In this document: positions 3,040-59,619 of the stretch, one piece after another | Layout: every line of letters begins with the position of its first letter | Position numbering within the stretch: position 1 is the stretch's first letter | Assembly: GCA_963804085.1 (NCBI GenBank) | Contig: CAWDOQ010000015.1 | Coordinates: 53,881 to 117,880 of the forward strand | Direction: 5' to 3' | Length of the DNA: 64,000 nt | Origin: Chlamydiia bacterium | Lineage (GTDB): Bacteria > Chlamydiota > Chlamydiia > Chlamydiales > Rhabdochlamydiaceae | Notes under the pieces: model-generated | Seen by the model: the letters and a program-made list of their open reading frames with translations, nothing else | The model's database searches: none | What the model was told of the DNA's origin: nothing | Position numbers and translations under genes: made by a program

Positions 3040-3118
3040 TCGTGCCCGTGTGCGTGCCCGTACCGGTGCCCGAATTAATCCGGATCGGGCACGGGCACGC
3101 ACGCGGGCACGGGCACGA
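3040..3118. repeat. Family A palindrome, copy A1 (core on minus strand)
   Basis: (GTGCCC)n arm, GAATTAATCCGGATC core, (GGGCAC)n arm. Confidence 0.9.
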
Positions 3119-3153
3119 TTTAAATAAAATCAGCGTTCGTCTAATGTGACACT

Positions 3154-3408
3154 ATGCTACGTCAACTCTTACTACTAGCCATTGCCACGCTCTATTATCT
3201 TCCCTATTGCCCTTATTCGAGGCAGGTGCTCACATACCTGGAAGAGAACCCACACCCTCTAATCATGAAAGATGTCTCTTTGGATCCTGAAACCAGAGAA
3301 GAGCTAGTAAGTAGAGGAGGCCAAGCCAGAGTCCCTTGTCTTATCGACGATGAGGATGAAGCTATCTATGGTGCTGCTGCTGTAATCGACTGGCTCGAGA
3401 CACATTAA
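3154..3408 (+). CDS. Glutaredoxin-like protein (monothiol CPYS)
   Basis: YCPYS and the GGQARVPCL cis-Pro motif. Confidence 0.8.
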   Translation: MLRQLLLLAIATLYYLPYCPYSRQVLTYLEENPHPLIMKDVSLDPETREELVSRGGQARVPCLIDDEDEAIYGAAAVIDWLETH

Positions 3409-3489
3409 TAGTGACACATTAATAGTGCTTTTCAACTTTGCACAAATCGGGTACAACCAGGGGTTGTTTTAAAAAAGGCGTTTTCTCTA

Positions 3490-4899
3490 ATGCTACCCGG
3501 ATCTTCTGCTAATAAGCCCAGACGTATTTTAAGCATCTTTATCTTGGCGATGCTCAACGTCTCGATCATGGCAAGCTTGCGCAATCTCCCTCTTGTTGCC
3601 GAGTATGGCCTGAGCATTATCTTCTATTTCTTTGTCGTTGCAATTGGATTTCTTATTCCTTGTGCGCTTGTATCCGCCGAGCTTGCTACGGGCTGGCCCA
3701 AAGGCGGCGGGATCTATATATGGGTGCGCGAAGCGCTCGGGGATCGCTGGGGCTTTTTAGCGATCTGGATGCAGTGGATACATAATGTTGCCTGGTATCC
3801 TGTTATCCTCTCTTTTGTCGCGACTACCTTTGCTTATGTCTTTTACCCCACGCTAGCCACCAATAAGATCTTTGTTCTTTGTGTTATCCTCTTTAGCTTC
3901 TGGGGAATGACGCTTCTGAATTATTTGGGCATTCGAACATCGAGTCTTTTTAGCACTGCAGGTGTTATTTTAGGAACGATTCTGCCGGGGCTATTTATCA
4001 TCGGCTTAGGGATAACATGGCTGGGCCAAGGCAATCCCGCTCACATCACCTTTACGTTGGACTCCCTGCTTCCAAATCTTAACAGCATTAACAATCTCGT
4101 CTTTCTCGCGGGTCTGTTTTTGGCCTTTGCTGGACTTGAGGTGACAGCTGCTTTGGCATCTGATGTGCAAGAGCCTCAGAAAAACTATCCGCGTGCCATC
4201 ATCCTCTCCGCAGGCATCACCTTTGGCCTCTTTCTCTTGGGATCTCTTGCGATTGCTATTGTTATCCCGCGTGAACAGATCAGCATCGTCTCAGGTCTTC
4301 TAGAAGCCTTTCAGACCTTTTTCGACTTTTACAGCCTCGGCTGGATTCTGCCCATCATGGCGATTCTGCTTATCATTGGAGCAATTGCAGAAGTAAATTC
4401 GTGGATTGTGGGACCGGTTATGGGACTCCACTCCACATCGATCCATGGCAACCTCCCTCCCTTCTTTCAAAAGCTCAACAAGCATGGAACTCCGGCAAAT
4501 CTCCTCTTTTTTCAAGCAGTGATCGTCAGCATCTCTTCTTGCGCCATTCTCTACATGCCAACCGTTAGCAGCTACTACTGGATCTTAAGCGCCCTTAGCG
4601 CTCAAAGCTATCTTGTCATGTACATCCTAATGTTCATCGCAGCGATTCGCTTGCGCTACTCAAAACCTCATGTGCCGCGCGCCTACCGCGTCCCCTACTC
4701 TGCTCCCGGCATATGGCTCGTCTCTTGCATCGGCATTTTAGCCTGCGCCTTTACCATCTTTGTCGGATTCTTCCCGCCCTCTCAGCTCCAAGTCGGCAGC
4801 TTAGTCTTTTACGACTCCTTCTTGATTGTCGGTCTTCTTATCATGATCGCTATCCCCCTGATCATCCACCAGTTTCGAAAGCCGGACTGGATACGCTAA
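3490..4899 (+). CDS. APC-family amino acid permease (GadC-like)
   Basis: About 12 TM segments; AELATGWPKGGGIYIWVREALG and PQKNYPRAI. Confidence 0.9.
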   Translation: MLPGSSANKPRRILSIFILAMLNVSIMASLRNLPLVAEYGLSIIFYFFVVAIGFLIPCALVSAELATGWPKGGGIYIWVREALGDRWGFLAIWMQWIHNVAWYPVILSFVATTFAYVFYPTLATNKIFVLCVILFSFWGMTLLNYLGIRTSSLFSTAGVILGTILPGLFIIGLGITWLGQGNPAHITFTLDSLLPNLNSINNLVFLAGLFLAFAGLEVTAALASDVQEPQKNYPRAIILSAGITFGLFLLGSLAIAIVIPREQISIVSGLLEAFQTFFDFYSLGWILPIMAILLIIGAIAEVNSWIVGPVMGLHSTSIHGNLPPFFQKLNKHGTPANLLFFQAVIVSISSCAILYMPTVSSYYWILSALSAQSYLVMYILMFIAAIRLRYSKPHVPRAYRVPYSAPGIWLVSCIGILACAFTIFVGFFPPSQLQVGSLVFYDSFLIVGLLIMIAIPLIIHQFRKPDWIR

Positions 4900-4966
4900 A
4901 TTTTTTTTATTTGCCCAATTTAAAAGCAGCGCAGAGTATTCTCTTTGCTCTTAAAGAGGCTAATCT

Positions 4967-57929: not shown

Positions 57930-57975
57930 GAAAAGCGTCAAGCGCGCTTAGGCATCATCGGGAGCAAAGAGTTAC

Positions 57976-58092
57976 AACAGGATGGGCAGGATAGACAGGA
58001 TGAAGAAAGAATCCTGTTTTTAGCTTTTTTCCCTCTTCATCCTGTCTATCCTGCCCATCCTGTTTTAATTCTTTTTCCTTCTTCATCCTGTC
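57976..58092. repeat. Family B palindrome, copy B3
   Basis: AACAGGATGGGCAGGATAGACAGGATGAAGA and its exact reverse complement. Confidence 0.9.
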
Positions 58093-58172
58093 TATTTTGT
58101 GTAACTAAAATTTTTACTTTAATCACAAGTTAACTATCGATTTTATAGCCAAAATCATGTAAAATTTTTGCC

Positions 58173-59549
58173 ATGGCACACGCAGTTATTCCTTTTAACA
58201 TTGCTCATTTCCGCGATCTGGGTTCTTTTGAAACAGCGCTCTACGATCCCTCCTATGCTGAAGAGATCACTTATTCCACGCATGAGGCACTCAATGAGCG
58301 GCTGAACAACCTATTTAAACAGAAACTTTTAAGTGTCCCAGAGGTCTCTCTCCACTTCACCCCTAAAGAGGTCGAGCGCCACTGGGAGCTCATCTTTTCT
58401 CAGGCAAAAGAGAATCTGGGGAATGCTCACTGGATGTACAAAAGGTCGACGATACGCGAGCTTTTTGAAGAGATAAATCAAGTAGTTTTAGGGGTGAGCT
58501 CTCAAGGCATCCAGCCCTACGGCACGAAAGAGACCTTTGCCGGAGAGGATGTGCGTAACTTAATTAAATACCTGCTTCATGATATCCCTCTCAATTGCGA
58601 CATCACCACCTGCTCCTCTCTTCAGTACGCACTAAATGATGAGTGTGTGAGCGCAGATCTTCAAACTAGAAGTCGCAATGAAGTGAGTTATCTTCTACGC
58701 AGACTCTCCGAAACGCTTAAAGATAAACCCTGCGATCTTCCTACAGAGATGCTCGTCGGTGAAGCCTTGTCTCTTTACGCTTTTATGGGATTTCCTGAAG
58801 CAAACGATATAGTCACAGTGCCGGTAAAAGTAGCTGATGAATGGAAGCAAGTTTCCTACACTGTTAATCTTATCCCGCTCACGCCTTGGTGGCTGGGCGA
58901 AAGCATCCCCGGCATTGCCTTAGAGCCAAATGAGCCCGGCATGCCGCCTCTTCTTCTTTTTAGAGCCACACGCGGAACACTCTCTTGGCTTGTAGACTTT
59001 ACACCCGGTTTTTCTGCAGGAAAAGCGCTCTACTACCTGGGCAAAGACAACCTTAAAACTTGGATCGAAAAAGTCGGTTCACCTGAAAACAGAGTGCGCA
59101 TTTTCGGAATGAGTTTGGGTGGAGCGCTTGCCTACTACACAGCTCTTGATTCTCCAAAACTGGTCGAAATTAACGCCTTTGCTCCTCCCGGTGCTTGTAT
59201 CCAAGAGGAGTGCTCCATTGAAGGAACGATCTATTTTGATCCGAGCGATCCCGTGAGCCTCTTGGGATCGCATCCTGTCTCTGACAATTTACAGATGGTA
59301 AAAGTGATACGCACAAACTCGAGCCACATGCGTATGTTTGGAGGCGAGCCTACGCTGCTTCTGCGCGTGAATACTGTGTTTGAAAATCAGAAAATGCTAC
59401 GGACTATTCTTTCGATTCTTCATCAGATAGCGGCGTTTCCTCTATTTCTGATACTCGCAACCATTGTCGCGATCAACGCTCTCATCCGAAAGACGATCGA
59501 CCTTTTCCATTATGTCTTTGCAGGCACCCACGCTCTCAACCCTTCTTAA
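58173..59549 (+). CDS. Alpha/beta-hydrolase (lipase-like) with C-terminal hydrophobic segment
   Basis: LLFRAT, GMSLGGALA, AFAPPG and DPVS. Confidence 0.75.
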   Translation: MAHAVIPFNIAHFRDLGSFETALYDPSYAEEITYSTHEALNERLNNLFKQKLLSVPEVSLHFTPKEVERHWELIFSQAKENLGNAHWMYKRSTIRELFEEINQVVLGVSSQGIQPYGTKETFAGEDVRNLIKYLLHDIPLNCDITTCSSLQYALNDECVSADLQTRSRNEVSYLLRRLSETLKDKPCDLPTEMLVGEALSLYAFMGFPEANDIVTVPVKVADEWKQVSYTVNLIPLTPWWLGESIPGIALEPNEPGMPPLLLFRATRGTLSWLVDFTPGFSAGKALYYLGKDNLKTWIEKVGSPENRVRIFGMSLGGALAYYTALDSPKLVEINAFAPPGACIQEECSIEGTIYFDPSDPVSLLGSHPVSDNLQMVKVIRTNSSHMRMFGGEPTLLLRVNTVFENQKMLRTILSILHQIAAFPLFLILATIVAINALIRKTIDLFHYVFAGTHALNPS

Positions 59550-59552
59550 CAA

Positions 59553-59619
59553 CTTGCCCTTGCCCTTGCCCGAATTAATCCGGATCGGGCAAGGGCATGG
59601 GAAAGGGCAGGGGCAAGGG
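59553..59619. repeat. Family A palindrome, copy A12
   Basis: (TTGCCC)n-GAATTAATCCGGATC-(GGGCAA)-type arm. Confidence 0.9.

Follow-up and report, generated by a model that had tools for sequence, protein, structure and literature searches.

What are the GC-rich hairpins that recur along a 64,000-nucleotide (nt) stretch of the genome of a Chlamydiia bacterium of the family Rhabdochlamydiaceae? The stretch, hereafter the window, is C15:53881-117880 of a 2.13-Mb assembly of 24 contigs that is 91% complete. An initial annotation of the sequence described about 12 such hairpins, here called family A, with variable arms of hexamer arrays and, in nine copies, a conserved core, ATCCGGATTAAT, made of two overlapping palindromes. 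The observation of the hairpin family was confirmed, and its interpretation was supported in part. We propose that family A is a miniature version, without the gene, of a family of palindromic cassettes that many environmental chlamydiae carry, and that these cassettes are best regarded as selfish DNA, a reading to which we assign a probability of about 0.68.

A family of hairpins with hexamer-array arms

Family arms were present at all 12 annotated starts in the window; eleven of the copies are two-armed and fold as hairpins, and one (44479) is a lone arm. The 11 hairpins had RNA minimum free energies (MFE) of -34 to -97 kcal/mol (z-scores, relative to mononucleotide shuffles, from -4.7 to -17) and MFE of -18 to -64 when folded with DNA parameters. 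Their arms are variable, as annotated, and consist of GTGCCC, GCGCCC, TTGCCC, GTGCCT, CTGCCC and similar hexamers. The exact core was found nine times, five times on the plus strand and four times on the minus strand, whereas dinucleotide shuffles contained 0.33 on average and 3 at most (0/100 shuffles reached nine). The three sites without a core (11764, 19165 and 44479) were the same as those in the initial annotation. A scan of the window with a regular expression (regex) for the arms revealed no additional family copy, and there was no open reading frame (ORF) inside any of the 12 copies.

The whole genome was scanned with the arm regex, which requires at least three NNGCCY units at 6- or 12-nt spacing. 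It returned 263 arms, compared with 5 in a mononucleotide-shuffled genome. Removal of 21 arms with atypical units left 242 arms in 148 clusters, comprising 88 pairs of a 5' arm and a 3' arm, 56 lone arms and 4 other arrangements. The cluster density was ~1 per 14.4 kb genome-wide and 1 per 5.3 kb in the window. On the top strand an element reads pyrimidine-rich tract, W, C, (GNGCCC)5, GATC, loop, (GGGCNC)5, G, W and purine-rich tract. The arms are terminal inverted repeats that pair into one stem; they are 14-46 nt long and at least 80% complementary. Among the 89 hairpins paired by the regex, 64 have five units in both arms, and the arms are mostly 30 nt long. A C lies directly outside the arm in 93-96% of copies, with A or T beyond it, and the next ~15 nt are pyrimidine-rich, with G at 2-9%. 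The loops of the 89 hairpins measure 13-85 nt, with exactly 15 nt between the regex arms in 35 of them, and GATCCGGATTAATTC, in either orientation, is the most frequent 15-nt loop. In some longer loops the order is GATC-CGGATTAAT, ~25 nt, a purine-rich tract and GATC, and in other loops a small GCGGC...GCCGC hairpin stands in place of the core.

The 263 arms were sorted by their units. Type I arms (GCGCCC GCTTCC GCGCCC GCATGC GCGCCC; n=90) are near-identical, class IIb arms (n=64) are rich in GTGCCT/CTGCCT, and class IIa arms (n=42) combine GTGCCC with one GTGTGC, GCGTGC or GCGCGC unit; the remainder are IId (29), IIc (19) and unclassed (19). Both arms belonged to one class in 68/89 hairpins. 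In this genome 88 clusters have the polarity GNGCCC...GGGCNC and one is reversed.

Longer copies enclose a PF05635 gene

Lone arms were paired over longer distances, with 270-520 nt between arms, which identified four long elements with an ORF of ~115-131 residues (Table 1). The three ORFs that were tested match PF05635 (23S_rRNA_IVP) with E-values of 3e-19 to 1e-23. A six-frame search of the genome with PF05635 gave six matches, and the four full-length ones are exactly the four arm-bracketed genes. The search for a four-helix-bundle gene flanked by copies, which the initial annotation had advised, therefore led to four such genes elsewhere in the genome, while its statement that the window encodes no mobilising enzyme held, no candidate partner gene being found there. 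As the window copies lack the PF05635 gene that the four longer relatives carry, we consider the window copies to be derivatives rather than full members of the family. The two partial PF05635 matches (C7:2075-2287 and C19:346295-346501, profile positions 8-73) lie in longer ORFs, and ORFs of ~190-200 residues resembling these are present in several other chlamydial genomes.

Identity is 98% between the C7 and C19 copies and 57-70% among the three distinct paralogues. No two paralogues share an arm class: type I surrounds C10:17646, IIa surrounds C7/C19 and IIb surrounds C10:160339. These three classes are the commonest among all arms of the genome. Either arm of C10:17646 is an exact match to the series of type I units. 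In the element around this gene, a tract rich in pyrimidines comes after the left GATC and one rich in purines before the right GATC, and the latter pattern recurs in longer gene-less loops. The PF05635 protein is under purifying selection (pN 0.07-0.26 vs saturated pS 0.70-0.90). Its closest solved structure by sequence is 2GSC (XCC0516), at an E-value of 2.8e-8 and with five chains; according to a passage in PMC4990558, the XCC0516 protein is a homopentamer in which four-helix bundles make up a ring. The C10:160339 cassette was also considered as a recent arrival from family f22; this was rejected, at a nucleotide identity of 77% and a pS of 0.73.

Arms and PF05635 genes across Chlamydiota

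The array (GGGCAC)3GGGCA, with up to 3 mismatches, was found in 50/301 Chlamydiota genomes and in 43/166 genera. The chance expectation, by our own estimate, is ~0.003 matches per genome; a control with the pattern backwards carried no information, as reversal of the repeat gives the same periodic word. The number of array matches per genome ranged from 4 to >300 and varied widely even within one genus. The GTGTGC/GCGTGC variant unit and the GATC end are shared by the arms across Chlamydiota genomes, and hairpins with the same arm grammar and other loops were found in genomes G268, G290, G246 and G267. In G005 the hairpins were highly uniform (8/8 fetched loci), with a mode of 5 units. A search of viral contigs for (GGGCAC)4 yielded 43 loci, none of which was a family hairpin; the 4 with both array types were GC-rich coding-like repeats.

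PF05635 matches were detected in 50 of the 300 Chlamydiota genomes scored, 35 of them above the curated cut-off. A tally from two tables placed a match in 29/50 array-positive genomes vs 21/250 others, which is not an independent test since the genomes are related. To examine the gene neighbourhood, 30 loci around the best PF05635 matches were fetched, and 27 were retained after the locus of the present genome and two loci cut by contig ends had been set aside. The gene was bracketed by inverted repeats of at least 18 nt, with inner ends within 250 nt, at 21/27 loci, compared with 1/96 when the intervals were shifted by 700 or 1000 nt. Inspection by eye identified tandem-unit arrays at 23/30 loci, of GNGCCC type at 13, the locus of the present genome included; the other units were the hexamers CCGTAA, CGGTCA, CCGAGA and ATCTTG, or heptamers. 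Several array matches abut coding sequence judged by eye to be PF05635-like, and in G001 several copies of a 5-unit module plus spacer stand on each side of the gene. A maximum-likelihood tree was built from 26 proteins, leaving out rows with stops and partial rows. Heptamer-armed and hexamer-armed proteins were separated by starred branches, and the two CCGTAA-armed proteins were paired with support of 100/99.

One further locus, L128 (G006:C39:56250-57100), has a 228-residue ORF flanked by a GGGCNC arm on one side and a GNGCCC arm on the other; judged by eye, the ORF resembles the C-terminal part of an IS66-type transposase.

Gain, loss and turnover of elements

Filled and empty orthologous sites were found in genus g14. 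Within a syntenic 14-kb region, an element of ~190 nt lies between two genes in G013, where G143 has 11 nt. The ~190 nt include the element's own purine-rich and pyrimidine-rich tracts, and since the difference between filled and empty site spans these tracts, they belong to the element. At a second g14 site G013 and G143 are filled and G129 has no arm; the genomes contain 50 (G013), 57 (G143) and 4 (G129) array matches.

The arms turn over fast and the loop inverts. The elements at 59553 in the window and at C22:17676 have common flanks, opposite loop orientation and arms that differ in unit number and type, and one arm has an 8-nt indel between contigs C1 and C3. Contigs of a soil sequencing run, X1, contain an organism 94-96% identical to this one and are mostly broken at elements. 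Where the site at 52547 is bridged in this sister organism, 50 interior nt (52556-52605) are replaced by 70 others, and at 40413-40769, which includes the 40700 copy, 357 nt are replaced by 163 others.

Further differences and similarities were noted at these places. A 418-nt insertion that is missing here lies in the X1 sister at 41643/41657, between ybeY and the next gene. The 59553 hairpin is part of a ~235-nt segment duplicated at 81% identity (window 59490-59770 and C22:17610-17870), and beside it 125 nt at 59629-59754 are 73-81% identical in ~14 other genomes and resemble the 3' coding end of a minus-strand gene.

A proposed selfish palindromic cassette

We propose the following model for the family. 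The module comprises a pyrimidine-rich tract, W-C, about five GNGCCC hexamers and GATC, with its reverse complement as the other arm. Full-length copies enclose one small four-helix-bundle gene (PF05635), and short copies have the arms and an interior remnant; most short copies in this lineage would descend from one founder with the loop GATCCGGATTAATTC. The family would have spread to ~148 intergenic sites as selfish DNA, with the gene-less copies depending, or having once depended, on gene-bearing ones. The protein, probably a ring-shaped oligomer, may bind its own arm array and so promote copying or retention of the arms, with host replication or repair enzymes performing the DNA chemistry. 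We give this recognition of the arms low odds. When transcribed, perfect stems of 25-40 bp would be cut by RNase III, as are the true intervening sequences (IVSs) of 23S rRNA, and this cutting would punctuate operon transcripts as a side effect.

Several observations weigh against this reading. We know of no catalytic activity of PF05635, and none is suggested here. Six of the 27 PF05635 loci are not bracketed, and the hexamer clade of the protein tree is without resolution, the GNGCCC label requiring 6 changes. G143, with its 57 array matches, has no PF05635 match at 98% completeness, so the arms persist without the gene. All four gene-bearing copies are coreless. In G005, G013 and G143 the leading arm is purine-rich-GATC-(GGGCNC)n, with GATC outward. 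Polarity relative to the gene thus differs between lineages, which is awkward for simple vertical descent of gene and arms. In genus g14 the arms have 4 units, arguing against a fixed match to a five-part ring, and the match between five arm units and such a ring is speculation. Lastly, of the two signs of insertion for which the initial annotation proposed to look, filled and empty alleles were found in g14 and a target duplication was not: the one clean filled/empty pair, at ~70% flank identity, had no clear direct repeat and a doubtful TACTTGGG-like match, and in this genome the element flanks are inverted in composition, not direct.

The varying polarity, the gene-less arms of G143 and the coreless gene-bearing copies would also fit a different scenario, in which the hairpins are primary, self-standing, REP-like elements (REP, repetitive extragenic palindromic) and the four-helix-bundle genes and a second, non-coding cargo (cargo 2, below) are secondary invaders homing into loops or spacers. 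The unrelated inserts hosted by the loops, namely PF05635 genes, cargo 2 and the mini-hairpin variant, point the same way. We nevertheless consider this unlikely, because arm period and unit track the protein phylogeny (heptamer vs hexamer, and the CCGTAA pair), because each paralogue here is in a different arm class, and because simple homing would need high specificity to account for bracketing of the gene at most loci elsewhere.

A bolder proposal can be made, although the odds are against it: IVS-family four-helix-bundle proteins may be sequence-specific readers of short tandem arrays, the three paralogues each serving their own arm class and controlling copying, retention or RNA processing at >140 hairpins. 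If true, this would define a transposase-free, protein-guided class of mobile palindromes and provide the first function for PF05635. The family was first described in 23S rRNA IVSs. It is large, and we know of no function for it outside diversity-generating retroelements; to our knowledge, the origin and spread of rRNA IVSs have been open since the 1990s. The genome offers a natural experiment, with three paralogues in their own arm classes and ~140 gene-less copies with the same arms, so that binding specificity, RNase III processing and mobility are directly testable in this system. A large part of the intergenic DNA of some reduced chlamydial genomes is accounted for by the family as well, as is the breaking of their assemblies at these sites.

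Gene context and possible host functions

The position of the hairpins relative to genes was determined from a crude ORF-based gene call (2054 ORFs, 89% of the genome). The 89 paired hairpins were located between tandem (45), convergent (20) or divergent genes (14), in called ORFs (9) or at a contig edge (1), against background intergenic counts of 1326 tandem, 354 convergent and 350 divergent. The nine ORFs that contain hairpins are probably over-long gene calls; all copies are intergenic or at gene ends. The orientation of the core relative to co-directional neighbours was random (21 same, 26 opposite).

This context bears on whether the hairpins serve the host, as RNase III sites, mRNA 3' stabilisers, terminators, or regulon sites bound by the four-helix-bundle protein. 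The nearest stop codon was no more than 45 nt away in 65/85 distances and the stems are very stable, both of which suit such a role; RNase III also cuts true IVSs, according to a passage in PMC4990558. On the other hand, of the 79 hairpins with a called gene on either side, 14 have divergent neighbours and no stop codon close by. The hairpins were rejected as intrinsic terminators: a downstream T run was present on at least one strand in only 13/89 and on both strands in 1/89, and the 12 nt downstream are 44% A and 27% G. No family arm was found after the orthologue of the 1211-residue gene preceding the 57808 copy in any of nine relatives (0/9), in which the downstream neighbours differ too. 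The spread of copy number from 4 to >300 array matches per genome and the rapid turnover of arms and loops likewise argue against a host signal, which we regard as improbable.

The core loop and a second cargo

The genome-wide count of the core, a check outlined in the initial annotation, gave 83 exact matches (46 plus, 37 minus), or 81 sites after two overlapping double cores were merged. Of these sites, 74 are in or beside family arm clusters, and 74/148 clusters hold a core. The core is found on arms of several classes, including one copy with GTTACC-type hexamer arms, and is present in the sister-organism contigs of X1. These findings count in favour of the first suggestion, a fixed loop that is recognised by a protein and that the stems merely present. 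This now seems very improbable. A 19-mer spanning the core was found, at up to 2 mismatches, in none of 40 relatives (24 of the same family and 16 of other families of the order), and there was no exact match to a core-spanning 23-mer or 21-mer in the genome or metagenome collection, from which records of this genome may be left out. The loop was found only in this genome and one ~95% identical sister, whereas the arms are phylum-wide. Moreover, about half of the clusters (74/148) and all gene-bearing copies are coreless, and the core inverts freely.

The core region adjoins a second cargo, a non-coding palindrome that is 250-480 nt long and has TTCAACGCAAAG-type ends. There are ~14 copies of cargo 2, some within family arms and some free-standing. 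In C16:21961-22417 it is flanked by a direct repeat of ATTAATTCGGG, so that loss of the cargo between the repeats would leave exactly the short loop. Since the gene-bearing copies are coreless and the core lies beside cargo 2, the short copies did not arise by direct deletion from the gene-bearing copies now present. Single-base variants of the core were found in only ~8 copies, and its conservation is about equal to that of type I arms. Because the core is little varied, occurs on several arm classes and is present in the sister organism, we infer that a single short founder of this kind gave rise to the short core-bearing copies. The conservation and the orientation flips of the core fit shared descent from this founder as well as they fit selection, and the core may itself be a functional site.

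Two minor features of these loops were also observed. Some cargo-2 copies hold a further inner palindrome (AGAGCCACGCAAGTGGCG...), such that the palindromes are nested. The loop of the 33506 copy contains, before the core, a small ATCCGA/ATCCAA array (33541-33576) that has seemingly grown from the core's ATCCGG.

Relation to known systems

The elements most resemble the IVSs of 23S rRNA (Coxiella burnetii helix 45; Leptospira; S23p ORF). The two have the protein family PF05635 in common, with the gene in the loop of a long terminal-inverted-repeat stem and with purine-rich tracts and short tandem repeats beside it; both have a patchy distribution, and a selfish or mobile origin is suspected. 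The tandem repeats of the Coxiella IVS are given as AGAAGA plus GACAGAT heptamers in a passage of PMC4990558. In contrast to IVSs, the chlamydial elements lie between protein-coding genes rather than in rRNA, their arms are ordered arrays of ~5 hexamers, and the gene has been lost from ~140 loci. The 23S gene of this genome (C16:20-2796) is without an IVS, its model alignment having gaps of only 4 and 20 nt.

The repeats are dispersed, non-autonomous and palindromic, and the REP-like or MITE-like character (MITE, miniature inverted-repeat transposable element) assigned to them at the outset was borne out. They share with REPs, bacterial interspersed mosaic elements (BIMEs) and their REP-associated tyrosine transposases (RAYTs) the form of short GC-rich extragenic palindromes in many dispersed copies, often right after stop codons. 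They differ in that their stems are two to three times longer and made of tandem units. REP classes have 5-13-bp stems and unpaired GTAG or CGTC tags, according to the passages available from PMC3733652, which describe no REP class with the features seen here; family A ends in W-C-G(T/C)GCC(C/T), with no unpaired GTAG/CGTC tag.

Movement of the family as REPs or BIMEs by a RAYT, or as classical MITEs of a DDE or IS110 transposon, is largely refuted: the genome does contain one Y1, one IS110-type and two DDE_Tnp_1 genes, but its sole Y1 (PF01797) gene has unrelated 63-nt and 24-nt inverted repeats of its own and, as nearest array, one 12-nt two-unit match ~240 nt away, no family arm of at least three units lies within ~2 kb of these genes, the arms of 18-40 nt are long and tagless compared with REP stems, and no target duplication was seen. 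The Y1/RAYT-like gene is at C17:57812-58264 (L009 1486-1938; E-value 5.6e-27). Its flanking repeats (63 nt, 97% complementary; 24 nt, 100%) are of the GTCCTGTAAGGAC type, which is found at C2:164252 and C16:88802 as well.

Correia, ERIC and Rickettsia palindromic elements are bacterial MITEs, non-autonomous, with ends common to a few longer gene-bearing copies and with insertion polymorphism. Family A resembles them in all these respects. It differs in that its gene-bearing copies are without a transposase, the whole element is one palindrome and target duplications were not seen. Palindromic GC clusters and hairpin elements of organelles (sponge, fungal and algal mitochondria) are, in the sources as far as available, likewise GC-rich, partly microsatellite-like and spread between genes without a known enzyme in small AT-richer genomes; they are in other hosts and have no sequence in common with family A, and those sources report no associated protein gene. 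No reverse transcriptase was found in the assembly, which is 91% complete. The view that the hairpins belong to no described family was upheld: there was no Rfam match at the gathering threshold in the window, and a literature search, with subscription journals outside its coverage, found neither these hairpins described nor any free-standing PF05635 cassettes that have miniature derivatives.

Copies in the window and other repeats

The coordinates of the window copies, the gene-bearing copies and cargo 2 are listed in Table 1. The genes flanking the window copies are ordinary (cyclophilin, permease, CTP synthase, ruvX, zwf, folD, ybeY, adenylate cyclase and others), with no transposase among them. 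The two arms of the 39388 hairpin are of different type, which explains its imperfect pairing.

Table 1. Family A copies in the window (positions in window coordinates), gene-bearing copies and cargo-2 copies elsewhere in the genome (contig coordinates).
Feature	Position	Parts	Context	RNA MFE (kcal/mol)
Hairpin, class IIa arms (GTGCCC with GTGTGC/GCGTGC units)	3040..3118	5' arm 3042-3071; core 3074-3085 (-); 3' arm 3087-3116	divergent genes either side, cyclophilin and amino-acid permease	-58.9
Hairpin, class IIb arms (GTGCCT/CTGCCT)	11764..11849	5' arm 11770-11793; 3' arm 11814-11843; purine-rich loop ending GATC, coreless	3' of ruvX	-42.7
Type I hairpin	12897..12973	arms GCGCCC GCTTCC GCGCCC GCATGC G(T/C)GCCC; core 12929-12940 (+)	begins 10 nt past ankyrin-repeat gene, precedes zwf	-81.1
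Short hairpin, coreless	19165..19235	3-unit 5' arm 19169-19186; GATC and pyrimidine-rich loop; 2-unit 3' arm 19218-19231		-34.2
Class IIa hairpin	24849..24927	5 units per arm; core 24882-24893 (+)	divergent genes	-69.4
Type I hairpin	33506..33613	core 33565-33576 (+)	directly 3' of folD	-93.4
Chimeric hairpin	39388..39467	5' arm type I-like; core 39422-39433 (+); 3' arm TTGCCC/CTGCCC-type, 39436-39465	convergent genes	-48.3
Hairpin, degenerate 5' arm	40700..40773	core 40728-40739 (+); 5-unit 3' arm 40742-40771	divergent genes	-47.4
Lone 5' arm (+)	44479..44506	4 units and GATC; no 3' arm found	followed by unrelated small palindrome of CTGCGTTTACGCAG type	
Class IIb hairpin	52547..52624	loop order GATC, pyrimidine-rich tract, core 52580-52591 (-)		-53.9
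Type I hairpin, long loop	57808..57930	loop order GATC, pyrimidine-rich tract, core 57881-57892 (-); arms and flanks pair over 40 nt		-96.7
Hairpin, TTGCCC-type arms	59553..59620	core 59574-59585 (-)		-38.6
Gene-bearing copy	C7:6786-7213	full-length PF05635 gene at C7:6846		
Gene-bearing copy	C19:343629-344055	full-length PF05635 gene at C19:343702	near-duplicate of C7 copy	
Gene-bearing copy	C10:17477-18059	full-length PF05635 gene at C10:17646		
Gene-bearing copy	C10:160177-160715	full-length PF05635 gene at C10:160339		
Cargo-2 copies	C16:22009-22357; C8:30726-30968; C19:331433-331749; C10:62320-62800; C2:171974-172442; others			

Other repeats were encountered alongside family A. A palindromic repeat found on both strands lies at 57965-58093 in the window, with copies at C1:13159, C15:8791 and C2:40408 and with short matches, of up to 97% identity, in G007, G016, G010, G030, G034 and G036. 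The genome also contains two further large inverted-repeat families, one composed of GTCCAC or CGGAC-type short repeats and the other with CGGACTTACGTCTCGGGCGG ends and with a copy at C15:4776; their coordinates form two lists, the first with C2:81211, C15:39196, C19:98503 and C19:346796 and the second with C15:4776, C16:55869, C19:229501, C10:167862 and C23:89909.

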